Assembly: GCA_014874425.1 (NCBI GenBank)
Contig: JACWAG010000493.1
Coordinates: 1 to 35,260 of the forward strand
Length of the DNA: 35,260 nt
Direction of reading: 5' to 3'
From: Syntrophaceae bacterium
Lineage (GTDB): Bacteria > Desulfobacterota > Desulfomonilia > Desulfomonilales > Desulfomonilaceae
This document shows positions 6,158 to 22,832 of the stretch, one piece after another (positions within the stretch are counted from its first letter, which is position 1; each line of letters opens with the position of its first letter). Below the pieces are notes generated by a model, which saw nothing but the letters and a program-made list of their open reading frames with translations, did no database searches and was not told where the DNA came from. A program made the position numbers and the translations under genes.

Positions 6158-6219
6158 GGCGAACAACGACTCCTAACCATACCCTCTTAGCAATCCTCCA
6201 ATCGGATTGCTTTTTTTTT
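6158..6219 (+). ncRNA. candidate ~60 nt sigma-54-dependent small RNA
   Basis: Bounded by the sigma-54 promoter and a strong intrinsic terminator. The segment contains no ATG or GTG, and its only TTG lies inside the terminator stem. It carries three pyrimidine anti-SD-like motifs: CTCCT 6170-6174, CCCTCTT 6182-6188, CCTCC 6195-6199. The downstream gene has its own sigma-70 promoter after the terminator. Confidence 0.4.
6189..6219 (+). terminator. rho-independent terminator
   Basis: Perfect 8-bp stem AGCAATCC (6189-6196) / GGATTGCT (6204-6211), 7-nt loop TCCAATC, then a run of T through 6219. Confidence 0.75.
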
Positions 6220-6231
6220 GCCACAAAGCGA

Positions 6232-6259
6232 TTGACACGGGGAAATATTTAACTATACT
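6232..6259 (+). promoter_or_regulatory. sigma-70-type promoter of the regulator/catabolic island
   Basis: TTGACA (6232-6237), 16-nt spacer, TATACT (6254-6259). The spacer contains the palindrome AAATATTT. ACTTAA direct repeats at 6265-6270 and 6276-6281 (11-bp phase) overlap the predicted TSS and are a candidate operator. Confidence 0.55.
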
Positions 6260-6855: not shown

Positions 6856-6919
6856 TCAATTAGCATGGGTAAAGCCGTAACTTGAAGGACATTATCCCAT
6901 TTTAAAAAGGAGAGCGACG

Positions 6920-8143
6920 ATGGTTTTAAAAAGCTTCAGGTCGATTTTGATCGTGATGTTAGTCTGTTTCCTGTCTGTTGGCTTTGCGTGCGCCGCGCAG
7001 AAAGCAGCATGGAAAATCGGTGTCGCCGTTTCATTAACCGGGGTGTTTGGTAAGGACGGCAGTCTGGTAAAAGACGCGTACACTCTGTGGCAGGAAACTG
7101 TCAATTCCCACGGCGGTATTAACGGGGCGCCTGTAGAGCTAATTTTCTACGATGATAAAAGCGATCCGGCGACCACCGCAAAACTCACTGAACAGCTCAT
7201 TGTAAGCGACAAAGTGGACCTTCTATTGGGCGGTTTCGGTAGTAGCCAGCTATTCGCCGCGAGTCCGGTTGCGGAAAAATATCAATATCCCTTGATTAGT
7301 GGTGGCGCCAGTTCAAACAAATTGTTTGAGCGTGGCTTCAAATATTATTTTTCTACATTGGGTAAAGCAACTGAAGAGGTAAGAGGTTGTGTCGACATTT
7401 TCTCAGAGGTTACCCCGAAACCTAAGACAGCCGCGATTATCGGAGCGGACATACTTTTCACTTCTCTGGCGTGTGATGGTTTTAAGAAATATTGCCAAAA
7501 AAATGGCATAGAAGTCATCCACTTCGAACTTTTCCCTATGGCTCTGCAGGATTACAACTCTCTGTTGATGAAGGTCAAAAACAAAAAACCCGACGTGTTG
7601 CTTGTTGGTTCGCATCTTCTGGTAGCTATGAAGACCATCAAGGCCATGAAGGAAATAGATTTCAGTCCCAAGGCGGTAGCATTCAGCTACGGGCCGACAG
7701 TCCCAAAGTTTGTAGAAGATCTAAAAGGTGACGCCAATTATGTAATCGCTGCGTCCGAATGGACCCCCAATATGCCATATTCTGGAAAGGTATTTGGAAA
7801 AGCTAGCGATTTTAACCAGCTATACATAAAGCGTTTTAATCGTAGGCCTGATTACGTTGAGGCCGCTGCCGCGGGTGGGGCTGTAGCTCAGCAGGAAGTT
7901 CTGGAAGAATTGGGATTGAAGCCGCCTCTAAGCAAAGAAAATCGAATTAAGATAATGGAAGCCCTACATAAAGACAAATTTGAAACTTTCTACGGCAAAA
8001 TCCAATTTGGAGCTGATGGGGCTAACGAAGCTCATCCTCCTGTAGCGGTGCAAATCCAGTCGGAAAAACTGGAAAACGTTTTTCCCCTGGAATATGCTGA
8101 AGCCAAAATCCTATATCCATTTAAGCCCTGGAAAGAACGTTAA
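6920..8143 (+). CDS. ABC transporter substrate-binding protein, Leu/Ile/Val-binding (HAAT, Peripla_BP_6) family
   Basis: Signal peptide (...FLSVGFACAAQ), IGVAVSLTG..G start typical of the family, about 400 aa, AAGGAG RBS. The ligand cannot be read from the sequence. Confidence 0.85.
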   Translation: MVLKSFRSILIVMLVCFLSVGFACAAQKAAWKIGVAVSLTGVFGKDGSLVKDAYTLWQETVNSHGGINGAPVELIFYDDKSDPATTAKLTEQLIVSDKVDLLLGGFGSSQLFAASPVAEKYQYPLISGGASSNKLFERGFKYYFSTLGKATEEVRGCVDIFSEVTPKPKTAAIIGADILFTSLACDGFKKYCQKNGIEVIHFELFPMALQDYNSLLMKVKNKKPDVLLVGSHLLVAMKTIKAMKEIDFSPKAVAFSYGPTVPKFVEDLKGDANYVIAASEWTPNMPYSGKVFGKASDFNQLYIKRFNRRPDYVEAAAAGGAVAQQEVLEELGLKPPLSKENRIKIMEALHKDKFETFYGKIQFGADGANEAHPPVAVQIQSEKLENVFPLEYAEAKILYPFKPWKER

Positions 8144-8158
8144 TTCAAGAACAGAGTG

Positions 8159-8193
8159 GGATTGGCGTCTTTTAAGCTGCCAATCCTCCTTTT
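8159..8193 (+). terminator. intra-operon hairpin after the binding-protein gene (partial terminator/attenuator or mRNA stabiliser)
   Basis: GGATTGGC (8159-8166) / GCCAATCC (8179-8186), 12-nt loop, followed by the weak T-tract TCCTTTT. Confidence 0.35.
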
Positions 8194-8276
8194 AACCACA
8201 ATGTAATTAATGGGAACGGGCGTCAAAATTAAATTCGCGCTCACCCTTTAAATATGTGAACTTAAGAAAGATTCAA

Positions 8277-9791
8277 ATGGAAGTCGAAAAACTAAAAAAC
8301 TACGTGAATGGAAAATGGGTCGATTCCAAAACAGGATCATTTTTCCCCACCGTCAATTCCCTAAATGGTCAAACAATAACTCTATGCCCGGATTCTACTA
8401 TTGACGAAGTTGATCTGACTATTTCTCTCGCCAAAAAGGCTTTCCAATCCTGGCGAAATACAATCCCGACCAGACGCGCGGATATTCTTTACACATTGCG
8501 GGAAAAACTACTCGCCGCTCGGAACGAATTAGCGGAAATAATAACGCTTGAACATGGAAAAACACTCTCCGACGCCAAAGGCGAATTAATGCGAGCGATA
8601 CAGTATGTGGAACATCCTTGCGGTATTCCGGAACTGCTAAAGGGCGATCACAGTGAAGACGTCGGAACAGGAGTTGACGAATATTATATAAGAGAGCCCT
8701 TGGGTGTTTTTAGTCTACTGCCTCCTTTCAACTTTCCGGCCATGATAGCCCTTTATTTCACTTGGCCTATTGCGTGCGGAAACACGGTTGTGGTGAAACC
8801 AAGCGAACTATGCCCCATGACTATGCTCAGAATAACCGAATTAGCCGAAGAGTCGGGTTTACCACCGGGAGTGTTGAATATAGTTAACGGTGGTCCACGT
8901 GTAGGCGAGAGGCTTTGCGTCCATCCGGAAATCGAGGGAGTTACATTTGTCGGGTCTTCAAAGGTCGCCGAAATGGTCTACAGAACATCGACTTCTCATG
9001 GAAAACGCGCCCAGTGTCAAGGTGGCGCAAAAAATCATGTCCTTGTCATGGAAGACGCGAACCTTGATGAGGCGATCCCGAACATAGTCAACTCTTGTTT
9101 CGGTCACACGAGCCAGAGGTGTTTCGCTGTGTCAAACGTGTTGGTCGATGAGAAGATTTATGATTCGTTCGAAGAAAGATTCATAGCTGCCTGTCAGAAA
9201 CTTAAACTGGGTGATGGACACGATCCAAAAGTCAACATGGGCCCGGTTGTGAATCAGCGAGCGCTAGATCGTCTCTACGAATCTGTCGATAAAGCGCTGG
9301 AACAAGGGGCGAAGTTGATTCTGGACGGTAGAAATCCAAAAATAGAAGAGTTTCCTGATGGGCTATTTTTTGGTCCCACTCTTTTGGAAGCTGAACCAGA
9401 TAATTTCGCGTTTAGAGAGGAGATATTCGGTCCAGTCAGGTGTGTCAAAAGCGTCAAGAGCTTGCAGGAAGCGATTAATATTATAAATTCAAGCATGTAC
9501 GGACATACTGCAGTTATATATACTCAAAACGGTGGTTGGTCCCGTCACTTCATAAGGAACGTAAATACAGGCCAAATTGGGGTCAATGTTGGCACACCCG
9601 CTCCAATAGCCTTTTATCCTGTTGGTGGCCGAAAAATATCTTTTTACGGGTCACACCGCGGTCGCGCTAACGACGCTATAGATTTCTACACGGACAAAAA
9701 GGTGATTGTAACCAAATGGAGTTCTTATGTTGAAGAACCGGCTTCAAGCAAATCAACAGAAATAAATGAACTAAACTCAGTCCTGTTTTAA
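8277..9791 (+). CDS. aldehyde dehydrogenase, methylmalonate-semialdehyde dehydrogenase (CoA-acylating)-like
   Basis: ALDH fold with N-terminal NYVNGKWV, FNFPAMI, GGAKNH (the MMSDH-type variant of the ELGGK motif), and catalytic Cys in SQRCFAVS. ATG 8277 preferred over GTG 8256. Confidence 0.85.
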   Translation: MEVEKLKNYVNGKWVDSKTGSFFPTVNSLNGQTITLCPDSTIDEVDLTISLAKKAFQSWRNTIPTRRADILYTLREKLLAARNELAEIITLEHGKTLSDAKGELMRAIQYVEHPCGIPELLKGDHSEDVGTGVDEYYIREPLGVFSLLPPFNFPAMIALYFTWPIACGNTVVVKPSELCPMTMLRITELAEESGLPPGVLNIVNGGPRVGERLCVHPEIEGVTFVGSSKVAEMVYRTSTSHGKRAQCQGGAKNHVLVMEDANLDEAIPNIVNSCFGHTSQRCFAVSNVLVDEKIYDSFEERFIAACQKLKLGDGHDPKVNMGPVVNQRALDRLYESVDKALEQGAKLILDGRNPKIEEFPDGLFFGPTLLEAEPDNFAFREEIFGPVRCVKSVKSLQEAINIINSSMYGHTAVIYTQNGGWSRHFIRNVNTGQIGVNVGTPAPIAFYPVGGRKISFYGSHRGRANDAIDFYTDKKVIVTKWSSYVEEPASSKSTEINELNSVLF

Positions 9792-9794
9792 AAA

Positions 9795-10667
9795 ATGTAT
9801 ACCGTATTCGCTCAAACCATAATTAATGGACTCCTGTTAGGAGGAGTTTATGCCGCATATTCAGCGGGATTTTCCCTGATATTTGGTGTCATGGGCGTAG
9901 TTAATCTCGCCCATGGTGAATTGATAATGTTAGGGGCTTTCACCTCTTACTGGTTGTTCGCTTATTTCAATTTGGATCCCTATTTAAGCGCGCCGTTCGC
10001 AATGGTTTTTCTGTTTCTCTTTGGATATGTAGTTCAAAAATACATCATAAATCGGGTCATTGGGCAGCCTCATATAATGAGCTACATCCTTACGTTCGGT
10101 CTCCACTTGATGATAGCCAACATAGCGATCAAAATGTGGACCCAGGATTTCCGGTCCATAACCACATCCTATTCCGGGGCTAATGCGGCAATCTGGGGTC
10201 TAAACATACCACTTGCAAGATTGGTAACCTTCATGGTGGCGCTCCTTGTGACATGGGTACTATGGTTTTTCCTGATGCGAACAGAGACGGGTCGGGCCAT
10301 CCGGGCTACCGCTCAAGACAAGGAAGTAGCCAGGTTAATGGGGGTAGATATCCGAAATATCTACGCCATAACATTTGGGCTTGGCGCGGCTATAACAGGA
10401 CTCTCCGGATCAGTGATGAGCCCCTTTGTAATTATATCCCCCGAAATGGGTCTCGAATACACAATTATTGCATTCTGTGTTGTGGTGTTGGGCGGAATGG
10501 GATACATGCCCGGAGCGCTCGTCGGAGGATTGGTTCTTGGAGTGGCGCAGTCTCTGGCGGCTACCTATCTCAATGCAGGGGTTTCTGTAGCCATAACGTT
10601 TATAATTCTATTTATTATGCTCGTCATTTGCCCGAAAGGGATCTTGGGCAAAGGTAGTGTAGCGTGA
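9795..10667 (+). CDS. livH: HAAT-family ABC transporter permease (LivH type)
   Basis: 290 aa polytopic protein with the family N-terminus QTIINGLLLGGVYAAYSAGFSLIFGVMGVVNLAHGE. Symbol is family-level only. Confidence 0.9.
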   Translation: MYTVFAQTIINGLLLGGVYAAYSAGFSLIFGVMGVVNLAHGELIMLGAFTSYWLFAYFNLDPYLSAPFAMVFLFLFGYVVQKYIINRVIGQPHIMSYILTFGLHLMIANIAIKMWTQDFRSITTSYSGANAAIWGLNIPLARLVTFMVALLVTWVLWFFLMRTETGRAIRATAQDKEVARLMGVDIRNIYAITFGLGAAITGLSGSVMSPFVIISPEMGLEYTIIAFCVVVLGGMGYMPGALVGGLVLGVAQSLAATYLNAGVSVAITFIILFIMLVICPKGILGKGSVA

Positions 10668-10694
10668 CATGCTTTAACAATAACCGAGGGCCGG

Positions 10695-11645
10695 ATGAAT
10701 TTTAAAATCGACAGGATAATTTTGATCATGTTCCTTGGTATTACTGCCGCGCTGGCCTTCCTGCCTAATTTTGTCGAATCTGAATACCTCTTGAGGTTGA
10801 TCACTGTTGTGATCTTTTGGATCGGGATTGCCGGTTGTTGGAACATGATGAGCGGATACACCGGGTATATTGATTTCGGGCCTGTGGTCTATTTTGGAAT
10901 AGGTTCCTATGTTGTCGCCATAGCCATGACCAAGTATGGGATTCCTTTTTTCCCAAGCCTTTTCATTTCCGGCGTAATATCGGGTTCAGTGGCTTTTTTG
11001 GTTGGAATACCAACCTTGCGTTTGAAAGGGGCATATTTTGCAATCGCCACGTTTGCCTTCGCTGAGGCTATGAAACAAATTACACTGGAATTTGATCGTA
11101 CATTCAGTGTTTCATTTTTTCAAGGTAGTGACGGTATAACTCTTCCGATCAGCGGCCATGACAATTCATTTTTCTTCTATTGCGTTTTACCGGTAACCTT
11201 TTTGGTAATGCTAGCTCATTACTTTATTGAACATTCAAAATTCGGATATGGACTGAAAGCCATAAAGGAAGCTGAAACCGCCGCCGAAATAAGTGGGGTC
11301 AATACTACAGCCAACAAACTGGGCGCTTATGTAAGCAGCGCTTTTTTTCTAGGTTTGTTTGGAGCTATAGAGGCTTACTGGATTACCTATATAACCCCTT
11401 CCGATGTTTTCAACATTCAAAAAACAGTTCAGATGGTAATCATGACACTATTGGGAGGTATGGGGACATTTTTGGGGCCGGTGATAGGAGCGACTTTTCT
11501 GACTCTGATTTCCGAGTCGCTGGGCGCGCGATTTGTCGAATACTACCTCATTATGATTGGCGGGATCATAATTGTGGCTATTTTGATAATGCCCAACGGA
11601 ATAATTGGGAGCTTGAAGATACGCAAGAAATTAAGGTTTATTTAA
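10695..11645 (+). CDS. livM: HAAT-family ABC transporter permease (LivM type)
   Basis: 316 aa polytopic protein; GYTGYIDFGPVVYFGIGSY and LRLKGAYFAIATFAFAE are typical LivM motifs. Confidence 0.9.
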   Translation: MNFKIDRIILIMFLGITAALAFLPNFVESEYLLRLITVVIFWIGIAGCWNMMSGYTGYIDFGPVVYFGIGSYVVAIAMTKYGIPFFPSLFISGVISGSVAFLVGIPTLRLKGAYFAIATFAFAEAMKQITLEFDRTFSVSFFQGSDGITLPISGHDNSFFFYCVLPVTFLVMLAHYFIEHSKFGYGLKAIKEAETAAEISGVNTTANKLGAYVSSAFFLGLFGAIEAYWITYITPSDVFNIQKTVQMVIMTLLGGMGTFLGPVIGATFLTLISESLGARFVEYYLIMIGGIIIVAILIMPNGIIGSLKIRKKLRFI

Positions 11646-11682
11646 TCTATGCAATAAATACAATAGCTTATTCGGGCACAAA

Positions 11683-12420
11683 ATGACTGGTTTGGAATGC
11701 AGGAAAGTAAGTATGAAATTTGGGGCCCTTGCCGCGGTCCAGATGGTGAGTTTTTCCCTGAATCCTGGTGAGATTCTGGGAATGATAGGACCCAACGGGG
11801 CTGGAAAAACTACTCTTCTCAATTGTGTAATTGGTATCCATAAACCTACTTCTGGGAGAATTTTCCTCAATCAAATCGACATAACTGGCATGAAACCCCA
11901 TAAAATTTGCCGCATGGGTTTAGCAAAAACATCCCAAATTATGGAGCCATTTATGGCGATGACCGTATTTGAAAACGTTCTCGTGGGCGCCTTGCATGGT
12001 GGTCGGATGAGAATGCGCCTAGCAACTGAAAAAACGGAGAAGGTCATAGAGCTAGTAGGACTTAAACAATACGCTTACAAGCTTTCAGGGTCTATTCCTG
12101 TGCCGGCGCGCAGACGGCTCGAACTCGCCAGGGCTTTAGCGAGCGGCGCCAATATCCTTCTTCTTGACGAAAACATGGCAGGCTTAAACCCTCATGAAAT
12201 CGATGAAGCGCTTGAGATTCTAAAAAAGATCCGAAACTCAGGAAAATCTCTAATAGTTATAGAACATATCATGAGGGTTGTAATGGGTATTTCAGATCGA
12301 ATCATCGTATTAAATTACGGCTCCAAAATTGCTGAGGGTTTTCCAGAAGAAGTTGTAAATGATGAATCGGTAATAAAAGCGTACCTGGGAGATAAGCTTA
12401 CATCTCTTAAAGTAGCTTGA
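11683..12420 (+). CDS. livG: ABC transporter ATP-binding protein (LivG type)
   Basis: Walker A GPNGAGKTT, Walker B LLLDE (signature loop degenerate), C-terminal IKAYLG typical of LivG. Confidence 0.9.
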   Translation: MTGLECRKVSMKFGALAAVQMVSFSLNPGEILGMIGPNGAGKTTLLNCVIGIHKPTSGRIFLNQIDITGMKPHKICRMGLAKTSQIMEPFMAMTVFENVLVGALHGGRMRMRLATEKTEKVIELVGLKQYAYKLSGSIPVPARRRLELARALASGANILLLDENMAGLNPHEIDEALEILKKIRNSGKSLIVIEHIMRVVMGISDRIIVLNYGSKIAEGFPEEVVNDESVIKAYLGDKLTSLKVA

Positions 12421-13148
12421 GAACAAATAAAATGAACGAACCCCTTCTAAAAGTAGAAAAAATTGATGTTTCGTATCGCGATGTTCAGGTTCTTCATGAA
12501 ATTGATCTAGAGGTTTATCCATCTGAGATTGTTACTGTAATAGGCCCTAACGGGGCTGGGAAAAGCACTTTGCTTAGTGCAATAATGGGTTTTGAAACCC
12601 CCAACAACGGCTCAATAACTTTTAATGGGAAGAAAATAACCGGGACCCCACCGGAAGAAACAGTAAAATTGGGTATGACTATAGTACCGGAGGGGGCCCG
12701 GGTCTTCACGGAGATGACAGTTCTGGACAATCTGAAAATGGGTTCATACATAAAATCATCACGTGTTCATCGAAAATCATCATTTGAAATGGTTTTCAAT
12801 TTCTTTCCCCGTTTACATGAAAGAATAAAGCAGAAAGGCGGCACCTTGAGTGGAGGTGAACGCCAGATGCTGGCAATAGGAAGGGCGTTAATGTCCAGAC
12901 CCTCTTTGTTGCTCCTGGATGAACCTTCTCTTGGATTGGCCCCATTGCTTGTTACTAAAGTATTCGAAACCATAGTTGAAATCGCAACGACTGGTTTAAC
13001 TGTGTTGTTAGTTGAGCAGAATGTTCATTTTTCCCTGGAAATTTCCAAAAGAGCATACGTGCTTGAGAACGGACGGATTGTAAAACACGGCTTTTCTGAA
13101 GAGCTTATGAACAACGATTATATTAAAAAATCCTATCTGGCGCTCTAG
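12417..13148 (+). CDS. livF: ABC transporter ATP-binding protein (LivF type)
   Basis: Walker A GPNGAGKST, signature LSGGERQ, Walker B LLLDEPS. TTG 12417 overlaps the livG stop (TTGA). ATG 12432 (MNEPLLKVE...) is an equally plausible start. Confidence 0.9.
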   Translation: MRTNKMNEPLLKVEKIDVSYRDVQVLHEIDLEVYPSEIVTVIGPNGAGKSTLLSAIMGFETPNNGSITFNGKKITGTPPEETVKLGMTIVPEGARVFTEMTVLDNLKMGSYIKSSRVHRKSSFEMVFNFFPRLHERIKQKGGTLSGGERQMLAIGRALMSRPSLLLLDEPSLGLAPLLVTKVFETIVEIATTGLTVLLVEQNVHFSLEISKRAYVLENGRIVKHGFSEELMNNDYIKKSYLAL

Positions 13149-13173
13149 AAAATTTGCCTCGAGGTTTCCCATT

Positions 13174-13701
13174 ATGAATCAAGAAAACCCACAGGATGAA
13201 CTAGCTGATCTGGAAATTTCTTTCACATTGAATGACTCTCAAGTTCGTGTTTCGATAAAACCATGGGAAACTGCCTTAGAAACTCTTCGAAACAAATTCG
13301 GGCTTACGGGAGTAAAAGAAGGCTGTGGAATTGGTGAATGTGGGGCCTGCACAATAGTCATGGACGGAAAAGCCGTTAATGGATGTCTAATATTGGCGGC
13401 TCAACTCGATGGGCGAACAGTCGAAACAGTCGAAGGTCTGTCTTCGAATGGGACCATGAACTACCTACAAAAAGCCTTTCTGGATAAAGGCGGTGTGCAA
13501 TGCGGTTTTTGTACTCCAGGAATGCTGATGTCAGCCAAGGCCTTGCTGGATGAATGCGATCAGCCATCGAAAAAAGTAATCACAAACGCTTTATCAGGCA
13601 ATTTATGTCGGTGCGCTGGTTACGTTCAAATAGTCGATGCGGTGGAAGAGGCGGCGCTAATAAAGTCAAAAGACGCAGAGGACCAAGCTGTCAATAGATG
13701 A
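13174..13701 (+). CDS. molybdenum hydroxylase small subunit, 2x[2Fe-2S] (CoxS/XdhA-N family)
   Basis: CGIGECGACTIVMDGKAVNGC (plant-type cluster) and CGFCTPGM...CRCAGY (second cluster). Confidence 0.9.
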   Translation: MNQENPQDELADLEISFTLNDSQVRVSIKPWETALETLRNKFGLTGVKEGCGIGECGACTIVMDGKAVNGCLILAAQLDGRTVETVEGLSSNGTMNYLQKAFLDKGGVQCGFCTPGMLMSAKALLDECDQPSKKVITNALSGNLCRCAGYVQIVDAVEEAALIKSKDAEDQAVNR

Positions 13702-14558
13702 GAATTAATTTCAAATACTTAAGACCACATTCTCTGAATGAGTGTTTGGCGGTTCTTGCTACACATGGGGACGAGTCTGCGATATTGGCCGGTGGCACTG
13801 ATCTGATGATTTCTCTCAGAAGTGGTTCACGGACACCTAAGTTTGTCCTGGATATTTCGAGACTAAGTGAAATTCGCTCTGTTGAACAACACGCCGAAGT
13901 CATCAAGATAGGAGCCATTCTGACATATTCAGAATTGATCGCTCATCCTTTAATAGTCAAGACTTTTCCAGCTCTTAGCGCCGCAATGAGCTGCGTAGGG
14001 AGCCTTCAAATCAGAAACGTCGGGACTTTGGGAGGCAATATAGCGAACTCTTCGCCTGCTGCGGATAGTATTCCCCCAATGATGATCCACGACGCTCAGG
14101 TCATGATTCAAAAAGTTAATTCTGTCAGAATAGAAAAGCTGGAGAAACTCATTGTGGGGCCATCTTCAAACACTTTAGAGCCTGATGAATTGATTACCGG
14201 GATAATCTTGAAGCCCGTTGAAAGCGCTTATAAACAAAGTTACCGGCGTATAGCCCGACGCAAGAGCCTTTCCATAGCAAGAGTCAATATGGCGGTATCA
14301 GCAAAATTGGATGCCAATGGACTCATAGAGGACGTTAGAATTTCGGTGGGTTCCGTGGCCCCAACTCCGCTGCGAATTAAAAAAATTGAAGATTCTCTAA
14401 TAGGACTGAAACCTGAATCCAAATTTATTCAGGAAACTGGTGAGTTGGTTGCCCGTCACATTGTGGACCTTGTTGGAGTTCGCCATTCCACTGAGTATAA
14501 ACGGCCGGCTATAGCGGGCCTGGCTATAAAATGCTTAGAGGACGTGTTCATTGACTGA
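13698..14558 (+). CDS. molybdenum hydroxylase FAD-binding medium subunit (CoxM/XdhB family)
   Basis: ILAGGTDLM and TLGGNIANSSPAAD motifs. Its ATG overlaps the small-subunit stop (ATGA). Confidence 0.85.
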   Translation: MRINFKYLRPHSLNECLAVLATHGDESAILAGGTDLMISLRSGSRTPKFVLDISRLSEIRSVEQHAEVIKIGAILTYSELIAHPLIVKTFPALSAAMSCVGSLQIRNVGTLGGNIANSSPAADSIPPMMIHDAQVMIQKVNSVRIEKLEKLIVGPSSNTLEPDELITGIILKPVESAYKQSYRRIARRKSLSIARVNMAVSAKLDANGLIEDVRISVGSVAPTPLRIKKIEDSLIGLKPESKFIQETGELVARHIVDLVGVRHSTEYKRPAIAGLAIKCLEDVFID

Positions 14559-16848
14559 CACAAACTTTAGCCAAAGCTCTTCATCAATCGGATTGAATAT
14601 TTCGCGTGTCGGAGCGGAAGAAAAGCTTCAGGGTAAAGCGCTATTTGCAAACGATGTCGTTTTGAAAAACGCCCTATGCCTGAAAGCCCTAAGAAGTGAA
14701 CTGCCTCACGCTGTAATTGAATCAATAGAAGTTCAAAGGGCTATAAATTCGCCCGGATGTGTAGCCGTTTTCACAGGTAGAGATATACCTGGAAAAAACA
14801 GGTATGGCCTCATCAACAAAGACCAACCACTTCTTGCTGATACTAAAGTTAGATTTGTCGGTGATCCAGTCGCTCTGGTGGCCGCAGTCTCCGAGGACGC
14901 GGCGCAGACCGCCCTCTCCAAAATCAAGGTCGAATACAAGGAATTAGCCGCTGTTTTTGATCCGGAAGAAGCGCTTGCGCCAGGCGCTCCATTGATCCAT
15001 GAAAAAGGCAATCTTTTGGGGAAACGATTAATAAAGAAAGGTGTCCCTGATTTGGCGTTTCAAAAAGCGGATATAGTCATTGAACGGAAGTACCAGACGA
15101 CGTTCGTCGAACACGCTTATCTTGAACCGGACGCCGGAGCCGCATTTGTAGACCAAAGTGGGCGAATAACAATATATGCGTCTACTCAAAACCCCCATTA
15201 TGACCAGGTTGATGTGGCTAAGCTGTTAGGACTTCCCGAAAACATGGTTCGAATCATTCAAACAGCAACAGGCGGAGGCTTTGGATCAAAACTTGACATC
15301 AATACACAGGGGTTCCTCGGGCTGGCGGCTTATCTTTTGAAAAGACCCGTCAAAATGACCTATAGCCGTGAAGAGGCTTTCCTTTGCACATCCAAAAGAC
15401 ACCCATTAAAGATAGTGTACAAATCAGCGGCCAATAAAGATGGGAGACTACTGGCGATAGATGTCAAAATAATTGGCGATACGGGCGCTTACGCGTCCTA
15501 CGGACTTGCTGTTGTGACTCGTTCCGCAGTTCACGCGACTGGTCCGTATGAGGTCCCAAATGTCCACGTCGAGTCTGTTTTCGCGTATACCAACAATTCT
15601 ATTGCAGGCGCAATGAGAGGTTTTGGTGTGCCTCAGATGGCTTTTGCGCATGAGTCGCAAATGGACTTACTTGCTGAAGCATTGGCTGTCAGCCCACTTG
15701 AAATAAGGGCTAGGAATATTCTAAGATTGGGGTCAACTACCGCTACCAAACAGACGCTTACGGCCAGTGTTGGAATAGGGGCGTGCATTGAAGCTATAGC
15801 TCCACATTACGAACAAATTAAAAAATCCATTGAGCTAACAAAAACGAAAAATCTCCGCGGGGTAGGATTGGGTTGCATGATGTACGGTATAGGCAATACA
15901 GGTGTCCAAAACCCGTCTACCGCGCAAGTCGAATTACAACCTGACGGTACGATAACATTGTTCAGTGGAGCGGCTGATATAGGGCAAGGCTCCTCCACCG
16001 TTTTAACTCAAATTGCAGCCACTGAACTTGGTCTGGACTCGAACAAAATCGACCTTGTAACTGCCGATACCGGAATGACGACTTCTGCAGGGGCCACATC
16101 TGCAAGCAGACAAACCTATATCTCCGGAAATGCCGTATTGGATGCTGTCTCAAAACTCAAGGAAATGCTTCTTACTGAAGCCGCTACCATGCTCAGGACT
16201 GGACGAGCCTCCCTGACTTTAAAAAATGGCAGAATCGAAAATATTTCAAACAACGCACTATTTGTCACTCTGGAACAGGTTGTAAGAAAGGCTGTAACGG
16301 AGGGAATACCACTAAAATGGCAGGGTTTTTTTGATCCCGATACTACCCCTCTGGACCCTGATACAGGTGAAGGCAATCCTTACGCGACTTTTGCTTTCGC
16401 AGCTCAACTTGCAGAAATTGAAATCGATGTTCTCACAGGAGAGGTCACAGTCACAAAAGTTGTTGCGGCTCATGATGTAGGAAAGGCTATAAACCCTGAT
16501 TGTGTAAAGGGCCAAATTTATGGTGGGGTCGCAATGGGATTAGGTTTTGCCCTAATGGAAGAATTTGCGCCGGGGAAAACAGTCTCCCTTAAAGATTACC
16601 ATGTGCCTACGTTTTCGGATATGCCCGATGTACATGCCATAATAGTTGAAGACGCTGAACCAACGGGTCCCTACGGAGCAAAGGGAGTGGGTGAACCAGC
16701 GTTAATACCTACCGCTCCGGCGATACTTAACGCGATAGCTGACGCTTTGGGATCAAGAATTTATTTTTTGCCGGCCAACCTGGAACGGATCATGAAAGCA
16801 ATCCATTCAGGGACCTCAAAACCACTTAAAATAAAACTGATGGTGTAA
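14551..16848 (+). CDS. molybdenum hydroxylase large molybdopterin-binding subunit (xanthine dehydrogenase/aldehyde oxidase family)
   Basis: 765 aa with GGGFGSK, MRGFGVPQ and C-terminal GVGEPALIP (catalytic Glu context). TTG start overlaps the FAD-subunit stop by 8 nt. The substrate cannot be called from the sequence alone. Confidence 0.9.
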   Translation: MTDTNFSQSSSSIGLNISRVGAEEKLQGKALFANDVVLKNALCLKALRSELPHAVIESIEVQRAINSPGCVAVFTGRDIPGKNRYGLINKDQPLLADTKVRFVGDPVALVAAVSEDAAQTALSKIKVEYKELAAVFDPEEALAPGAPLIHEKGNLLGKRLIKKGVPDLAFQKADIVIERKYQTTFVEHAYLEPDAGAAFVDQSGRITIYASTQNPHYDQVDVAKLLGLPENMVRIIQTATGGGFGSKLDINTQGFLGLAAYLLKRPVKMTYSREEAFLCTSKRHPLKIVYKSAANKDGRLLAIDVKIIGDTGAYASYGLAVVTRSAVHATGPYEVPNVHVESVFAYTNNSIAGAMRGFGVPQMAFAHESQMDLLAEALAVSPLEIRARNILRLGSTTATKQTLTASVGIGACIEAIAPHYEQIKKSIELTKTKNLRGVGLGCMMYGIGNTGVQNPSTAQVELQPDGTITLFSGAADIGQGSSTVLTQIAATELGLDSNKIDLVTADTGMTTSAGATSASRQTYISGNAVLDAVSKLKEMLLTEAATMLRTGRASLTLKNGRIENISNNALFVTLEQVVRKAVTEGIPLKWQGFFDPDTTPLDPDTGEGNPYATFAFAAQLAEIEIDVLTGEVTVTKVVAAHDVGKAINPDCVKGQIYGGVAMGLGFALMEEFAPGKTVSLKDYHVPTFSDMPDVHAIIVEDAEPTGPYGAKGVGEPALIPTAPAILNAIADALGSRIYFLPANLERIMKAIHSGTSKPLKIKLMV

Positions 16849-16886
16849 AACAGGATATTACGATCAAGACCAAGGAGTCGTCATTT

Positions 16887-18044
16887 ATGTCTAAAACGCT
16901 TATCAAGAACATAGGAACATTGATTTCCGGAAATATCATAAATCCTAAAATAAACGCTGACAGTATATTGATAGCTGACGGGAAAATAAGCGCTATAGGA
17001 TCGGTTTCGGAGTTAGCTGACGGAGTTGATTTAGTAATAGACGCGAATGGAACAACTGTTGCCCCAGGCCTTATTGATTCACACTGTCACGTGGTCCTTG
17101 GTGATTATACTCCTAGACAAAAACAAATGGACTTTATTGAAAGTGAAACTCATGGAGGAGTAACTACAATAATATCAGCCGGTGAAGTCCATTTGCCGGG
17201 ACGACCAACAGATCCTGCCGGGACCAAGGCCCTGGCTATCCTGGCCGCAAAATCCTTTACAAATTTCCGACCCGGAGGCGCCAAGGTAATTGGAGGTTCG
17301 GTAATCCTTGAAAAAGGCCTTGTCGAAAATGATTTTGAAGAAATGGCTCGTGAAGGTGTACGAGTAGTTGGTGAAATAGGGTTGGGCACGGTCAAATTTC
17401 CAGTGGATGCCGTGCCAATGGTAAAATGGGCCAGGAAAAACAATATGACGATATTGATGCACACAGGCGGGACCTCAATACCCGGAAGCGACACTGTTAC
17501 AGCCGAACAAGTCATAGCTACCGACCCAGATGTCGCCTGTCACGTTAATGGCGGTCCTACCGCTATGTCCTCGGGTGAAATCAGAAAACTCATTAATGAC
17601 ACTAAATACGCAATTGAGCTGGTTCACTGTGGTAATCCCAAAGCCCTTCTAGACGCTGTAAATATGGGGCTGGATAGCAAAGCGCTTTCCAGGTTCATTA
17701 TAGGCAATGACGCTCCTTCAGGCACTGGTGTCATACCACTAGGGATTCTAAGGGTAATTTGCATGGTAGCGTCCCTGACTGCCGTGACACCCGAGCAAGC
17801 CATTTGTATGGCTACCGGCAATACTGCAAAAGTGTTCAAGCTTGATACAGGCGTCGTTCAGATAGGGGCGCCCGCTGATCTCATAATGTTGGACAGCCCC
17901 ATGGGATCAGTTGGGAAGTCCGCTTTAGACGCCATAAAAGTTGGTGATATTCCTGGGGTCTCCATGGTGATGATCGACGGAAAAATCCACGTGAAGACAA
18001 GCAGGAATACCCCTCCTGCGGCTAAAAAACCGTCATTCAATTGA
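16887..18044 (+). CDS. enamidase-like amidohydrolase (1,4,5,6-tetrahydro-6-oxonicotinate hydrolase family)
   Basis: 385 aa. It appears collinear with my recollection of Eubacterium barkeri enamidase: MSKT.IKNIG start, DSHCHV metal motif, DY.PRQK.MDFI, HGGVTT, MHTGGTSIPGS.TVTA, NGGPTA, GNDAPSGTG.IPLGILR, CMATGN, C-terminal SRNTPPA. AAGGAG RBS. Needs alignment to confirm. Confidence 0.8.
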   Translation: MSKTLIKNIGTLISGNIINPKINADSILIADGKISAIGSVSELADGVDLVIDANGTTVAPGLIDSHCHVVLGDYTPRQKQMDFIESETHGGVTTIISAGEVHLPGRPTDPAGTKALAILAAKSFTNFRPGGAKVIGGSVILEKGLVENDFEEMAREGVRVVGEIGLGTVKFPVDAVPMVKWARKNNMTILMHTGGTSIPGSDTVTAEQVIATDPDVACHVNGGPTAMSSGEIRKLINDTKYAIELVHCGNPKALLDAVNMGLDSKALSRFIIGNDAPSGTGVIPLGILRVICMVASLTAVTPEQAICMATGNTAKVFKLDTGVVQIGAPADLIMLDSPMGSVGKSALDAIKVGDIPGVSMVMIDGKIHVKTSRNTPPAAKKPSFN

Positions 18045-18078
18045 AATTGGCATTTAACAACTATGAACGCGGGCATAT

Positions 18079-19578
18079 ATGAAAATTGATAGCCTCAAAT
18101 GTGTGGGATGCGCCGATTGCTTGCCGATTTGTCCTCAATCGGCAATCAAAATCAGGAATAGGAAAGCCGTTATAGACGAAAAATGTTGCGATTGCCGCGC
18201 CTGCCTCCGGGTGTGCCAAAACGACGCCATTTGCGCAGAATATATTCCACCGGAACAGTACGTTCAATGCGAGGCCTGCCCAATAAGATGCAAAATAAAA
18301 GAAGGTTTTCTAGGCGCCTGTCAAAGATACCAAAACAAAGACGGCGCTCTTGAGCGAACAATCAAACTCAAAAAACTTTCCGATGTAAAGAGCATGGTGG
18401 GAGAAGACTGGAGGGAGGAAATCCGCCGTCCCCTTATAACAGCGATTGGGGCTGGCACAACATATCCGGATTGTAAACCTGCGCCACACATCATCCAAAA
18501 CAAGGTTAATGGAATTGATGTGGTAACAGTCGTCACAGAGGCGCCATTGAGTTACTCAGGTGTAAAGATTAAGGTCGATACGGATAGGATGTTGGGTGAG
18601 GAAGGGTCCTCGATCTCTTATCATCGGAAAAAAGTCGGGCATCTAACCACTGAAGAATATGGTTCCAAAATGTTGTCTTTGGGGGGAGTAAACCTTCTTA
18701 CAGGCCCGGACGGTCTTTTTGTGGCCAGAGTAGTCGCAGACGTAGCGAATCGGAAAAAAATCCGGCTTAAGATTAGAAATGGGGCCGAATTGGATCTTCA
18801 GGTTGGTGGTCCGCCGCTAATTAACGGGGAAAAAGATTACTTGATGCGAGTGGGATGTGGGAGCGCGACGCTTGGATTATTCGCCGAAATGTTAAAAAAA
18901 GTCGCTGATGAAGTAATAATCCTGGATTCTCATTTGACCGGGTTAATGAGTGAACATACTGCCGGAGTTTATGTTGGAACCGCCCCTTCAGGGGTTAAGC
19001 TCAAATTTTCCAGAAGCACGCCCGGTAGATATTTTGGAGATCACGGTAGTGGATGGGGAGGAACGTCAATCATAAATCCGCTGGAAATAATTGAAAGCGT
19101 GGATTCCAAAATCGCCAAGCCTGGAATGTTGATTTTGATAACAGAAACAACCGGAAGACAAGCCGCCATGTTTCAATTGACATCAACAGGTTCTCTAAAC
19201 GAAATAGCAATAACTGTCAAAGCCAAAGAGGCTGTTCAGACTATAGCGGAGACATGTGAAAATTCCCGCGTATCGGCGATTTATTGCGGCGGTTCTGGTG
19301 GGAGCGCCCGTGCAGGAGTAACTAAGTACCCGATTAGGTTGACATATGCGATTCATACAAACAAAGCTAAATTAACTGTAGGTGGAGCGCCTACTTTTGT
19401 TCTACCGGGAGGCGGAATCAACTTCATGGTCGATGTTGAAAAAGTCGTGCCGGGAGCTTTCAGTTGGACCCCAACTCCTGCTACTATTTGCCCCATTGAG
19501 TATACCATGACACTTGAAGACTACATAAAAATGGGAGGGCACAAAGAGGCGATCAAACCTTTTATTAAAGGGGACTAA
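18079..19578 (+). CDS. 6-hydroxynicotinate reductase-like iron-sulfur protein
   Basis: The N-terminus has two ferredoxin-type motifs (CVGCADCLPICP, CCDCRACLRVCQ) plus an extra CEACPIRC...C cluster, on a ~500 aa body. It sits directly downstream of the enamidase homologue. Assignment rests on domain pattern, size and synteny. Confidence 0.6.
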   Translation: MKIDSLKCVGCADCLPICPQSAIKIRNRKAVIDEKCCDCRACLRVCQNDAICAEYIPPEQYVQCEACPIRCKIKEGFLGACQRYQNKDGALERTIKLKKLSDVKSMVGEDWREEIRRPLITAIGAGTTYPDCKPAPHIIQNKVNGIDVVTVVTEAPLSYSGVKIKVDTDRMLGEEGSSISYHRKKVGHLTTEEYGSKMLSLGGVNLLTGPDGLFVARVVADVANRKKIRLKIRNGAELDLQVGGPPLINGEKDYLMRVGCGSATLGLFAEMLKKVADEVIILDSHLTGLMSEHTAGVYVGTAPSGVKLKFSRSTPGRYFGDHGSGWGGTSIINPLEIIESVDSKIAKPGMLILITETTGRQAAMFQLTSTGSLNEIAITVKAKEAVQTIAETCENSRVSAIYCGGSGGSARAGVTKYPIRLTYAIHTNKAKLTVGGAPTFVLPGGGINFMVDVEKVVPGAFSWTPTPATICPIEYTMTLEDYIKMGGHKEAIKPFIKGD

Positions 19579-19647
19579 AGTCTGAACAAATGGGAAGCCG
19601 AAATTCTTGTTCTTGGTGATCAGAGCGTTCTTGTCGATTGCGGACCG

Positions 19648-20436
19648 ATGAGGATGATGATTGAGGGTTTTGAAGGGCCTCAGCCGCGTCCGGATTTGTG
19701 TGTAAAGGCCGCAAACTTTTCAATAAAAATCTTGGAAGAAGTCGCTGCGGCCAAGGCCCAACTAAGTAAAACGGCAATCACTTCTGACCCTCCATCAGGT
19801 GATGGTGTTTCATTCAAAATGTGGCAGGCCACCAGAAGGATTGGCGCTCATGATTTGACACCCATGGCCACAGTCGCAGGAGCGGTTGCAGACGCTACAG
19901 CAGATTTCTTGCACGGGTTTGGAATGACCAGATCTATTGTAAATAACGGTGGTGACATTGCAATTCGACTAACAGGCGAAGAATTTGTCAACGTTGGTGT
20001 CCGATGTGATATTGACAGGTCTGAAATTTCTCACCGTATATCAGTTTCACAAGCCTCTGGTGTTGGAGGAATTTGTACTAGTGGGCTGGGCGGCCGAAGT
20101 TTCACTCGAGGCATAGCGTCCGCTGTTACTGTATTGGGGGTAACGGCGGCGATAGCTGACGCTGCGGCCACGTCGGTAGCCAACGCGACATATATCGATC
20201 ACCCAAATATCATCCGCATAAATGCTGATGAATTGGACCCACTAACTGATCTCAAAGGTATCAAAATCACATGCGGTGTGGGAGACCTGGAAATGGAATT
20301 CATCGATGAGTGTTTTATCAAGGCGCTTAACTATGCGGACACTCTTGTGTATCAGGGAGCAATAGTTGGGGCTGTGGTCTCAATTAAAGGACGGACACGC
20401 CTAACTAACGGAATAAAATCTATGATGTTAGCTTAG
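19648..20436 (+). CDS. UPF0280 / ApbE-superfamily-like protein (uncharacterised)
   Basis: Ala/Gly-rich alpha/beta protein (TPMATVAGAVAD, NNGGDIA, TSGLGGRSFTRGIA), recalled as the UPF0280 pattern. The frame is open from the upstream stop at 19576-19578, and the upstream residues (EAEILVLGDQSVLVDCGP) look protein-like, so the true start may be non-canonical and upstream of ATG 19648. Confidence 0.5.
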   Translation: MRMMIEGFEGPQPRPDLCVKAANFSIKILEEVAAAKAQLSKTAITSDPPSGDGVSFKMWQATRRIGAHDLTPMATVAGAVADATADFLHGFGMTRSIVNNGGDIAIRLTGEEFVNVGVRCDIDRSEISHRISVSQASGVGGICTSGLGGRSFTRGIASAVTVLGVTAAIADAAATSVANATYIDHPNIIRINADELDPLTDLKGIKITCGVGDLEMEFIDECFIKALNYADTLVYQGAIVGAVVSIKGRTRLTNGIKSMMLA

Positions 20437-20485
20437 TTTACGGGGAATGGCATTTTTCTTAAATGAGAGAAGAAGGGGAACTATC

Positions 20486-21064
20486 ATGGAAATCAGGAAA
20501 ATTTGCACAGTAGTTGAAGAAACTCACACCGAAATGGGAAAAAACGTAACACCTCCATCCAAACGAGCGGCCGCAATAGCAGTCATCAAAAATCCCTTTG
20601 CAGGCCGTTACCAGGAGAATCTGTCAGAGTTAATTGAAACAGGCGAAAAATTGGGAGAGCTTCTTGGGAAGAAGGCCCTTGAAGCGCTAGGTATAAATTC
20701 TGACAAAGCTGAGAGTTACGGCAAGGGAGCAATCGTTGGTTCTCAAGGTGAACTGGAACACGCTGCCGCCATTTTGCATCCAAAACTGGGCACACCTTTT
20801 AGGGAAGCCCTGGGTGGTGGTAAAGCCTTGATCCCATCTGCGAAGAAAATTGGTGGGCCAGGCACGGAACTGGATGTTCCGATTCATTATAAGGACGCCG
20901 CTTTTGTAAGGTCACATTTTGACGCGATGCCAATCCGAGTTCAGGACGCTCCTCGTGGTAACGAGATCGTAGTGGCTCTTGTGGTGACCGATTCAGGAAG
21001 ACCTTTGGCTAGGGTTGGTGGGCTCAAAAAGGAAGAAGCCAAAAAGGAAGACGGCCTGAGATAA
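20486..21064 (+). CDS. 'amino acid synthesis' family (PF06684/DUF1185-like) protein, function unknown
   Basis: About 190 aa starting MEIRKICTVVEE, with AAAIAVIKNPFAGRY, YGKGAIVG..GE.EHAAAILHPKLG and FVRSHFDAM as recalled for this family. GAAGGGGA RBS 7 nt upstream of ATG 20486 (track start 20447 rejected). Confidence 0.6.
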   Translation: MEIRKICTVVEETHTEMGKNVTPPSKRAAAIAVIKNPFAGRYQENLSELIETGEKLGELLGKKALEALGINSDKAESYGKGAIVGSQGELEHAAAILHPKLGTPFREALGGGKALIPSAKKIGGPGTELDVPIHYKDAAFVRSHFDAMPIRVQDAPRGNEIVVALVVTDSGRPLARVGGLKKEEAKKEDGLR

Positions 21065-21161: not shown

Positions 21162-22742
21162 TTAAAGACTCGATATATCATACGCGAAAATGACACTTCG
21201 ATACCCTGTAATGCTCTTGAAAAACATAGGATTGACCAAAACCAGCACCAAGGATTTTGTCCCTTCATTTTTGAAATCAGTGATCAAGTAATCTGAAATA
21301 ATTCCTGGACTGGTAACCGTGCGCCAATCCTCCACAAACTGCTTTCCGTCCCATCCTAAAGCTTCTATGGCAGACCCGGCTTCCGACTGCTTCGTGACGA
21401 GAATTTCATTTTGCCCCACTCCCTGTGAATTGCTGATCAATATCCTGCCGGGCATCTCGATGTCTACTGGGGACTGCCCCTGCTTGTACAAACGGATGCG
21501 TCTATGCAGGCCATAAAGCTTGTCCAGCTTTGTGGTCACCAAACGGTTGTCTTGGTCAAAGGCCATCAGACGCTGGTCCTGACTGAGCATTATCCTCAGA
21601 AACTGTTTATCAGGCCCGAATCGTCCAGAAGCGTAACTCAAAAGAAATGTTCCGGGCGGTAGATCAATCTCCCCAACTCGTTTTAGCTTACCGTCCTTCA
21701 ATTCATATCTTTCCATCTTGCCGCTGAACATGCCGGACGAATCAATCCGTTGCCCCACGAGCAATTGTTTTTCCTTACCGTCTACAGGTTCCGAGATCAC
21801 TTTTAGTATGACGTCCGGAATTTGATCTACTACTTTAAGGTTCATTCCCTTGTATTGGATAATAGCAGATTCGAACCCTGACAATGTTCTATAGCAAAGT
21901 ATAAGTTCCGCGATCCCACTTCCATCAAGGTCTTTCGCTTCGGCGCTCACGTAGATCGCAGGCGCTTGGGAAAACCGGGTTAGAGGCTTAAGGCCCCTAT
22001 CTTCAAATCGACTTATCGTGATCCCGTTTTCATCGAGGAACACCACTTCATTCTTGCCATCGCCATCAAGGTCCCCAACAGTCACTGAAGCGATACCCAT
22101 AGACATCTCTGGACTTCGCCATGGGGCCAAAGATTGGCTGGAACGTCCAGGTAAGCTCACCAAGGCGGGGTTACGGCTAGGTAAAGTAGCCGCCGGTGAC
22201 ATACCCTCCGATTTATAAAACTCGAGTTTTGGGACCCCGGTCAGTCTCTTGCTAATCGCAGCGGCAAACATATTCAGAGCGCTAGGTAACGCGTGAATAT
22301 TATCAACCCTGATATCAGTGCTTACAGTAGGTTTATTTGCCGCAACGTTCCACATGAGGCCCCGCATCCTGTATTGGTTGTCTTCACGAGACAGGAAGCC
22401 GAAAATAGCCATTTCTGCGCCGACTTTCTGGGCCAGTTTAACTGCTTCCTTGTCGTCCTTGAAAGGGACCTTGTCCTTCATGAATTTTTCGAGTGCGCTA
22501 TCAGGTATAACAATTACCGTGTTCCCCATACTGTTTACTGTAGACTTGACAGTGTCGGTGGCATGATCAGAGAACGATTTCAGCTCATCATCCGAGACGC
22601 CAGACAATAAGCTGAACGGTAAGGTAACAACTTTTAGTGGTTGATGGTTTTTTTCCGACCCGTCTACGCTACCTGCAAAGGTAGAAATAGCGAGAACCAG
22701 AAGAACCCCGAAAATGATTCGGCTGCCTGTGGCTGGAGTCAT
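21162..22742 (-). CDS. secreted FG-GAP/VCBS-repeat protein with TolB/LpoB-like N-terminal domain
   Basis: Signal peptide MTPATGSRIIFGVLLVLAISTFAGS when started at ATG 22742. N-terminal domain pattern KVVTLPFS...GAEMAIFGFL. FG-GAP-like Ca-binding repeats VGDLDGDGKNEVVFLDENG and AKDLDGSGIAELIL. The alternative TTG 22778 adds 12 aa. Confidence 0.75.
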   Translation of the reverse strand: MTPATGSRIIFGVLLVLAISTFAGSVDGSEKNHQPLKVVTLPFSLLSGVSDDELKSFSDHATDTVKSTVNSMGNTVIVIPDSALEKFMKDKVPFKDDKEAVKLAQKVGAEMAIFGFLSREDNQYRMRGLMWNVAANKPTVSTDIRVDNIHALPSALNMFAAAISKRLTGVPKLEFYKSEGMSPAATLPSRNPALVSLPGRSSQSLAPWRSPEMSMGIASVTVGDLDGDGKNEVVFLDENGITISRFEDRGLKPLTRFSQAPAIYVSAEAKDLDGSGIAELILCYRTLSGFESAIIQYKGMNLKVVDQIPDVILKVISEPVDGKEKQLLVGQRIDSSGMFSGKMERYELKDGKLKRVGEIDLPPGTFLLSYASGRFGPDKQFLRIMLSQDQRLMAFDQDNRLVTTKLDKLYGLHRRIRLYKQGQSPVDIEMPGRILISNSQGVGQNEILVTKQSEAGSAIEALGWDGKQFVEDWRTVTSPGIISDYLITDFKNEGTKSLVLVLVNPMFFKSITGYRSVIFAYDISSL

Positions 22743-22832
22743 CAATTGAACTATGTTATTGACCAAAAAAAATACCAACTGACATTGCAGTTGGCGTAGG
22801 AGGAAAAGATTATTTTCTTGACCTTTCCTTAA

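Follow-up and report, generated by a model that had tools for sequence, protein, structure and literature searches.

The closest described counterparts of the locus analysed here are the nicotinate clusters of Eubacterium barkeri, of Azorhizobium (AZC_2790-2804) and of Bradyrhizobium (blr3818-3830) (Alhapel 2006, PMC3511419). We examined 35,260 nt of a Desulfomonilaceae metagenome-assembled genome (MAG; contig JACWAG010000493.1, forward strand), a stretch that we call the window, in which a co-directional block of 14 genes (6301-21064) makes up a nicotinate operon that ends, at its 3' side, with genes for a 6-hydroxynicotinate reductase-like protein (Hnr), a UPF0280 protein and a DUF1185 (PF06684) protein. 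The operon encodes the reductive route of nicotinate (vitamin B3) and is of a known cluster type, in which the co-occurrence of Hnr, UPF0280 and DUF1185 is itself already known. It differs from the proteobacterial clusters in that its Hnr keeps an N-terminal 2x[4Fe-4S] domain, from the described clusters in having one DUF1185 gene rather than two and a Desulfomonilaceae MAG as its host, and from the E. barkeri pathway in that a methylmalonate-semialdehyde-dehydrogenase (MMSDH)-type aldehyde dehydrogenase stands in place of the B12-dependent lower pathway. What is new here is that the triad resolves into two pairs and that both UPF0280 and DUF1185 are tied to existing experimental work; also new are that UPF0280, by the tests for membership, falls outside the ApbE transferase family and that its gene has a conserved, probable CTG start.

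The experimental work on both families contradicts an earlier note on this DNA, which had credited neither family with an experimentally defined role. In Desulfovibrio vulgaris Miyazaki, the COG2122 (UPF0280) gene DvMF_0044 is required for homocysteine synthesis, and its fitness pattern correlates with that of DUF39 (r=0.98) (Price et al. 2018, PMC5764234). As that paper relates it, citing Rauch and Perona 2016, homocysteine and cysteine formation from sulfide requires the COG2122 member MA1715. The COG2122 family had been labelled "probably a flavin transferase" (Kuehl et al. 2014, PMC4045070). DUF1185 is a homohexamer in solution, with a chorismate-mutase-like fold and a conserved cavity of ~1000 cubic angstroms beside a histidine cluster (PMC2954203). 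In the account that PMC7913881 gives of Perchat 2018, the trigonelline pathway includes a TgnE-dependent oxidation of succinate semialdehyde that the DUF1185 protein TgnF stimulates; another DUF1185 member, HcdD, adjoins an ene-reducing enzyme (PMC7913881).

The gene order described in the earlier note is confirmed: three consecutive plus-strand open reading frames (ORFs) at 18079-19578 (499 aa), 19648-20436 (262 aa) and 20447-21064 (205 aa) encode proteins of the Hnr-like, UPF0280 and PF06684 families. We searched all 70 genomes of the order to which the window belongs, using four queries. Hnr is present in 61 genomes and an Hnr-type UPF0280 in 57, adjoining Hnr in 55 of these; in the four Hnr genomes that are without UPF0280, Hnr lies at a contig edge, and no Hnr-type UPF0280 was found in the nine genomes that are without Hnr. 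Among 80 Desulfobacterota loci, UPF0280 lies directly 3' of Hnr nearly wherever the contig allows, with DUF1185 next in most. Two loci (L047 and L050) hold the Hnr-UPF0280 pair alone among unrelated genes, and two genomes that are 98-99% complete (G012 and G061) hold Hnr and UPF0280 with both the enamidase and DUF1185 absent. Indeed, UPF0280 travels with Hnr and stays paired with it when the operon splits. The neighbourhood that the earlier note had expected to be conserved is so in part: the triad is broadly conserved and UPF0280 is a near-obligate companion of Hnr, but DUF1185 segregates from Hnr.

The same pairing is found outside the Desulfobacterota. Alpha- and Betaproteobacterial plasmids carry the order Hnr, UPF0280 and one or two DUF1185 genes with overlaps of 4-8 bp, and 13 of the 14 UPF0280 genes detectable on plasmids directly follow Hnr. 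The proteobacterial Hnr is without the ferredoxin domain, and four of five annotated loci have a gene for a ferredoxin-NADP reductase close by. Among the Desulfobacterota loci, UPF0280 evolves much faster than Hnr (38-53% versus 58-80% identity in the same loci). We set aside an orphan UPF0280 gene on a Hydrogenophaga plasmid (L122, NZ_CP044550.1) as a cluster remnant at an IS1071 junction; it lies in a tandemly repeated Rieske/PDR oxygenase unit, and the record has four UPF0280 matches. Fused ORFs are rare, joining UPF0280 to DUF1185 in P0127 and P0135 and Hnr to UPF0280 in P0130. Natural fusions were not accepted as proof of a complex: the 12 longer proteins are singletons, several of them with frameshift-like Arg-rich stretches, and constitute weak evidence. 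In a Desulfomonile MAG (L022:10001-12373) the Hnr frame continues stop-free into UPF0280, as a fusion or an assembly error.

DUF1185 behaves differently. It is present in 57 of the 70 census genomes and is parted from Hnr in 20 of them, where it follows the enamidase or lies behind ftsY. Seven genomes (G037, G038, G052, G062, G063, G069 and G070) have it directly after the enamidase, and their Hnr-UPF0280 pair occupies a different operon or contig. Four of the five split loci that we examined consist of divergent operons, one with the order regulator, enamidase, DUF1185, transporter and aldehyde dehydrogenase and the other with the order (Fe-S subunit), FAD subunit, Mo subunit, Hnr and UPF0280; the fifth (L113, in G037) matches this layout, although the ORF call used there did not resolve DUF1185. 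All seven genomes of one genus carry DUF1185 on a contig other than that of Hnr, and it lies behind ftsY in the loci examined. One locus of this kind (L095:6508-8349, G032:C25) has ftsY (an SRP54-type GTPase) and DUF1185 in a single 613-aa frame, and the two are separate adjacent genes in the sister genome G033; the joint frame probably reflects loss of a stop codon or an error in sequencing.

The contexts in which DUF1185 occurs without Hnr point the same way. PF06684 is found on 386 plasmids, compared to 26 for Hnr, and in all six annotated contexts without Hnr the gene immediately downstream of DUF1185 encodes a hydrolase (four alpha/beta hydrolases, one FAH-family enzyme and one amidohydrolase). 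An aldehyde or succinate-semialdehyde dehydrogenase gene is present in five of these six, and three have a tgn-type layout of DUF1185, hydrolase, flavin reductase, LLM oxygenase and aldehyde dehydrogenase. These contexts agree with the operon splits, and we read DUF1185 as part of the segment of such pathways that runs from the hydrolase to the aldehyde dehydrogenase. The earlier note had suggested that DUF1185 could be a partner of the reductase, a view that is not supported by the split operons, which place it with the enamidase and the aldehyde dehydrogenase, or by its position beside hydrolases and aldehyde dehydrogenases elsewhere.

The window DUF1185 protein (20447-21064, plus strand) matches PF06684 over its full length (E=6.7e-74; 247.5 bits versus a gathering score of 27; profile positions 1-175), and shares this family with SPO0826 (PDB 2QTP), BB2672 (3BYQ), TgnF and HcdD. 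It is very close to SPO0826 (E=3e-76) and also matches BB2672 (E=1.5e-41). Its similarity to homologues begins at residue 14, and the true start may therefore be the second ATG (20486). Like the window protein, TgnF is encoded in a pyridine-carboxylate catabolic cluster with a hydrolase and an aldehyde dehydrogenase.

The second protein matches the UPF0280 family in both sequence and structure. It (19582-20436, plus strand) matches the NCBIfam model NF003322 (PRK04334/UPF0280) with E=6.7e-61 and 205.9 bits, under the equivalog cutoff of 290; its profile matches 2O34 with E=7e-16, and proteobacterial orthologues are named "UPF0280 family protein" by NCBI. With an AlphaFold (AF2) model of high confidence (predicted local distance difference test, pLDDT, 94.9) as query, Foldseek returned 2O34 (DVU1097, a solved UPF0280 protein) first and then exclusively ApbE/Ftp/FmnB chains (E 1e-6 to 4e-4, template-modelling (TM) values 0.38-0.57). 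The earlier note had recognised the second protein as UPF0280/ApbE-superfamily-like, and these matches bear it out. Profile-profile comparison with canonical ApbE proteins of relatives gave E=1.9e-4 (probability 48%). The invariant motifs are TPMAxVAG, NNGGD, TSG..GRS and ADAAAT..N, with NNGGD (99-103), TSG (144-146) and ADAAAT (170-175) invariant or nearly so; GGD and TSG align with canonical ApbE, and the motifs align weakly (E about 0.8) with GG, TSG and EADA of E. coli Ftp. The ADAxxT stretch we take to be the Mg site of ApbE. No conserved Cys is found among the invariant columns of Hnr-type UPF0280. UPF0280 thus shares its fold with the ApbE/Ftp/FmnB transferases, which move flavin mononucleotide (FMN) from flavin adenine dinucleotide (FAD) to proteins (PF02424; PDB 7ESA, 4XGV, 4XDR and 6NXI), but is ~60-80 residues shorter and cytoplasmic; it is a separate family inside the ApbE superfamily, outside the transferase family itself.

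The UPF0280 gene most likely starts upstream of its first ATG. The 22 in-frame codons 5' of ATG 19648 (19582-19647) encode LNKWEAEILVLGDQSVLVDCGP, a stretch that is kept across loci and matches the N-terminus of proteobacterial UPF0280 proteins, and they include no in-frame ATG, GTG or TTG. All 10 loci of the genus share the CTG at 19582, whose adjacent codons vary and which is preceded by a Shine-Dalgarno-like AAAGGGGA; other genera have an ATG at this position or within a few codons of it. We conclude that translation most likely begins at CTG 19582, 66 nt upstream of the ATG, to give a predicted protein of 284 aa. The apparent spacer between Hnr and the UPF0280 ATG (19579-19647) is coding, and ATG-only gene calling cuts 22 residues off the protein. 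Programmed read-through from Hnr into UPF0280 was considered, as the two share a frame in the window, and was rejected, as this frame is not conserved among relatives. By inference, a weak CTG start fits a catalytic helper better than a 1:1 subunit.

The presumed client of UPF0280, Hnr (18079-19578, plus strand; 499 aa), is recognised by Pfam in its N-terminal 2x[4Fe-4S] domain alone (Cys8/11/14/18 and Cys36/39/42/46). The E. barkeri enzyme was reportedly purified as a single-subunit homotetramer. The family has more than 7,700 database relatives, many of them labelled 6-hydroxynicotinate reductase by JGI or NCBI, and those closest to the window protein are from Desulfomonilaceae MAGs. The assignment to Hnr is based on these source names and on a published comparison in which a proteobacterial member is 42% identical to the enzyme of E. 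barkeri (PMC3511419). The Fe-S content and the pathway context, with an enamidase orthologue directly upstream, fit 6-hydroxynicotinate reductase (EC 1.3.7.1). Conservation, taken across Desulfobacterota, Proteobacteria, Chloroflexota and Bathyarchaeota, includes an invariant, family-wide motif, Cys64-x2-Cys67-x3-Cys71...Cys81, which presumably holds a third cluster, as well as Arg83, Glu154, Lys165, Asp167, Tyr194, Cys260, Asp277, Arg411, Thr433, Glu474, Thr476 and a few others; no His is conserved across these phyla.

The ~420-aa body of Hnr (residues 57-499) has no relative that we could find in Pfam or the PDB, which does not establish a new fold. The Hnr model retrieved only the ferredoxin domain with Foldseek (PDB) and VIA-align wide, and the Hnr profile only ferredoxins in the PDB; the sole Pfam match apart from the ferredoxin domain was a weak one to GCV_T_C in 9 of 19 family members (best E 0.003). 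No flavin-binding domain is recognisable in Hnr. Candidate residues for flavin attachment, judged by conservation, are Cys260, Tyr194, Thr433 and Thr476; the GSAT stretch (262-264) was discarded as a flavinylation site, as Thr264 varies across the family.

This genome has a second UPF0280 paralogue (Hcy-type), located between a DUF39/HcyBio gene and a NIL-ferredoxin gene. This homocysteine-synthesis trio lies on the minus strand (G000:C299, L010:259-3311) and is followed by a rubrerythrin-like gene. The Hcy-type UPF0280 adjoins DUF39 in about 64 of 67 genomes of the order, and the two paralogues of this genome are ~35% identical over the core. The Hnr-type protein belongs to the same family as COG2122 of the DUF39 pathway (MA1715, DvMF_0044 and DVU1097, PDB 2O34), and in both cases the gene lies directly after that of a ferredoxin-dependent client; it differs in forming a distinct clade, with Hnr instead of DUF39 as its client. 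Every UPF0280 paralogue thus has a reductive, ferredoxin-dependent enzyme of its own to serve. Between the two clients hhalign detected no homology, and kinship of the Hnr body with DUF39/HcyBio (probability 0.2%) was rejected at the sequence level. A second, divergent DUF39-UPF0280 pair in another genome (G050:C1:3784542-3786338) may correspond to the coenzyme-M-type DUF39 paralogue discussed in PMC4045070.

We hold with moderate confidence that this single nicotinate operon comprises two units, Hnr with UPF0280 as an accessory that matures the Hnr cofactor, and DUF1185 acting in the steps after reduction. The scheme builds on observed gene content, folds, motifs, co-occurrence and segregation, from which we infer each biochemical activity. 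The operon would provide import, hydroxylation, ferredoxin-dependent ring reduction to tetrahydro-6-oxonicotinate, ring opening by the enamidase and a final MMSDH-type aldehyde dehydrogenase step. The xanthine-dehydrogenase-family hydroxylase would convert nicotinate to 6-hydroxynicotinate, and Hnr would reduce the ring, with its pair of [4Fe-4S] clusters and the Cys4 site relaying electrons to a flavin. Before this reduction, UPF0280 would install or mature the Hnr cofactor with its retained ApbE-like nucleotide/Mg site; the leading candidate is a covalent flavin such as that reported for the E. barkeri enzyme. UPF0280 is probably catalytic rather than a stoichiometric subunit because its gene appears to use a weak CTG as start codon in this genus. 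The enamidase would then open the ring to an enamine and so to 2-formylglutarate, and DUF1185, as a self-standing homohexamer, probably handles these labile compounds by tautomerisation, deamination, decarboxylation or channelling to the MMSDH-type dehydrogenase, with a hand-over like that described for TgnF in the account of Perchat 2018; the dehydrogenase would release glutaryl-CoA and CO2. The idea that DUF1185 is the only possible 2-formylglutarate decarboxylase was considered and has lost weight, since the aldehyde dehydrogenase of the operon is itself decarboxylating, of the MMSDH type.

For UPF0280, a role as maturation factor or subunit is the best reading because an ApbE-superfamily fold is combined with a near-obligate Hnr neighbour. 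We put forward tentatively, as a more specific proposal that could well prove wrong, that UPF0280 proteins act in the cytoplasm as cofactor transferases, each specific to its client. As minimal ApbE relatives with the Mg/pyrophosphate site retained, they would attach FMN or another ADP-linked cofactor covalently to two-electron reductases that depend on ferredoxin and whose fold is otherwise unknown, with separate paralogues for Hnr and the DUF39 homocysteine synthase. Several observations weigh against these proposals. The Pfam ApbE (PF02424) match of UPF0280 reaches only E=1.2e-3 and 18.9 bits, below the gathering score of 25.6. The ~20-residue ApbE segment FEKDGKRYHHILDPxTGYPA, with the catalytic His loop (HH[IL]xDP), is a gap in UPF0280, and the acceptor motif of the transferases, Dxx[ST]GA[ST], is absent from Hnr, with 0 of 55 Desulfobacterota proteins and 0 of 17 full-length family representatives carrying it. 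DUF39, the client of the other paralogue, is not known to contain a flavin. As for the division into two units, DUF1185 directly follows UPF0280 in 37 of 57 genomes, and the census genomes come from one bacterial family and are not independent, the counts reflecting a few evolutionary events. Proteobacteria, moreover, retain Hnr-UPF0280-DUF1185(x2) where a hydantoinase/oxoprolinase pair replaces the enamidase. The suggestion in the earlier note that UPF0280 could be a flavinylation or maturation factor or a subunit of the reductase is thus supported by the fold and the adjacency to Hnr, while the lack of the His loop in UPF0280 and of the acceptor motif in Hnr weighs against flavin transfer.

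Other arrangements must be weighed against the same evidence. The reductase might have two components, with UPF0280 as a stoichiometric subunit that supplies some of the active site or a site for a non-covalent cofactor, and not as a maturation enzyme. The strict adjacency to Hnr, the translational coupling in Proteobacteria, the use of a separate paralogue for each client and the missing ApbE catalytic His loop would all suit such a subunit, but the weak CTG start conserved in the genus argues for low expression, UPF0280 diverges faster than Hnr (38-53% versus 58-80% identity), and the E. barkeri Hnr is reportedly made of a single kind of subunit; we consider this unlikely. If DUF1185 is added to the complex, the three proteins would form one holoenzyme, as the earlier note suggested, with UPF0280 and DUF1185 each serving the reductase as subunit or maturation partner. 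The order Hnr-UPF0280-DUF1185, seen in 37 of 57 genomes and also in Alpha- and Betaproteobacteria, where stop and start codons overlap, and the rare fused ORFs (P0127, P0135 and P0130) could be taken in this sense. However, DUF1185 separates from Hnr in 20 of 57 genomes, G012 and G061 hold Hnr and UPF0280 without it, it is a stable homohexamer by itself (PMC2954203) that is mostly found without Hnr, and the fusions are singletons, several with frameshift-type sequence, all of which makes a holoenzyme very unlikely in our view.

UPF0280 could also be a handler of sulfur or Fe-S, in line with a persulfide idea for MA1715, that builds or repairs the cluster at Cys64/67/71/81 or some other part of Hnr that depends on sulfur. 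Sulfide assimilation requires the sister clade in the account of Rauch and Perona 2016 cited in PMC5764234, and Hnr and DUF39 both work with Fe-S domains; but Hnr-type UPF0280 has no invariant Cys, the motifs that it conserves belong to the ApbE nucleotide/Mg site, and DUF39 has no conserved cysteines (PMC4045070), and we regard this role as highly improbable. As for DUF1185, the adjacency in 37 of 57 genomes and the proteobacterial retention make a role at the Hnr step possible, such as action on the Hnr product before ring opening by a double-bond isomerase or tautomerase that gives the hydrolase its enamide form. The gene lies mostly between Hnr/UPF0280 and the ring-opening enzyme and is retained where hydantoinase/oxoprolinase-type enzymes replace the enamidase; the fold is chorismate-mutase-like (PMC2954203), and HcdD adjoins an ene-reducing enzyme (PMC7913881). 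Yet tgn-type clusters, which are without a ring reductase, still carry DUF1185 next to a hydrolase and an aldehyde dehydrogenase, and isomerisation of the Hnr product seems to us distinctly unlikely. The plasmid clusters with a hydantoinase/oxoprolinase A/B pair in place of the enamidase beside Hnr-UPF0280-DUF1185 are those of Sagittula, Pleomorphomonas and Neorhizobium (L091, L097 and L099), and their gene content suggests ATP-dependent ring opening.

The remaining genes of the operon, all on the plus strand, complete the route. In a consensus scan, the best sigma-70-like promoter match (TTGACA-16-TATACT) lies at 6232-6259, just 3' of a terminator-like hairpin (6189-6211), and is likely to mark the start of the operon. 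The first genes encode a helix-turn-helix (HTH)-cupin (PuuR-like) regulator (6301-6855) and a LIV-type ABC substrate-binding protein (6920-8143), followed by the coenzyme A (CoA)-acylating MMSDH-type aldehyde dehydrogenase (8256-9791), two ABC permeases (9795-10667 and 10695-11645) and two ABC ATPases (11683-12420 and 12417-13148). A candidate nicotinate dehydrogenase of the xanthine-dehydrogenase family comprises 2Fe-2S (13174-13701), FAD (13698-14558) and Mo (14551-16848) subunits, and the enamidase orthologue (16887-18044) matches the E. barkeri enamidase (PDB 2VUN) over its full length with E=1e-141. The aldehyde dehydrogenase, which scores 483 bits against TIGR01722, over the curated cutoff of 448.5, is a candidate for the conversion of 2-formylglutarate to glutaryl-CoA and CO2. 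Because it passes this cutoff for CoA-acylating MMSDH, it suggests that 2-formylglutarate goes directly to glutaryl-CoA and CO2 and that the B12-dependent branch of E. barkeri, in which 2-formylglutarate is reduced instead, is bypassed. The operon is bordered by a convergent gene for a 538-aa FG-GAP-repeat protein (21162-22778, minus strand), which apparently has no relation to the pathway.

The pathway itself is ordinary, and the value of the locus lies in a sharper pairing, of UPF0280 with Hnr, in parallel to its paralogue with DUF39, and of DUF1185 with the enamidase and the aldehyde dehydrogenase. The pairing of UPF0280 with Hnr could reveal what this family does, which has stayed biochemically blank since 2014-2016 although its members are genetically essential. 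If UPF0280 proteins are indeed cofactor transferases, this would explain how one-electron donors are coupled to hydride-type chemistry in Hnr and DUF39. Similarly, the pairing of DUF1185 could explain the effect of TgnF and correct the misleading "amino acid synthesis" annotation on hundreds of genes.

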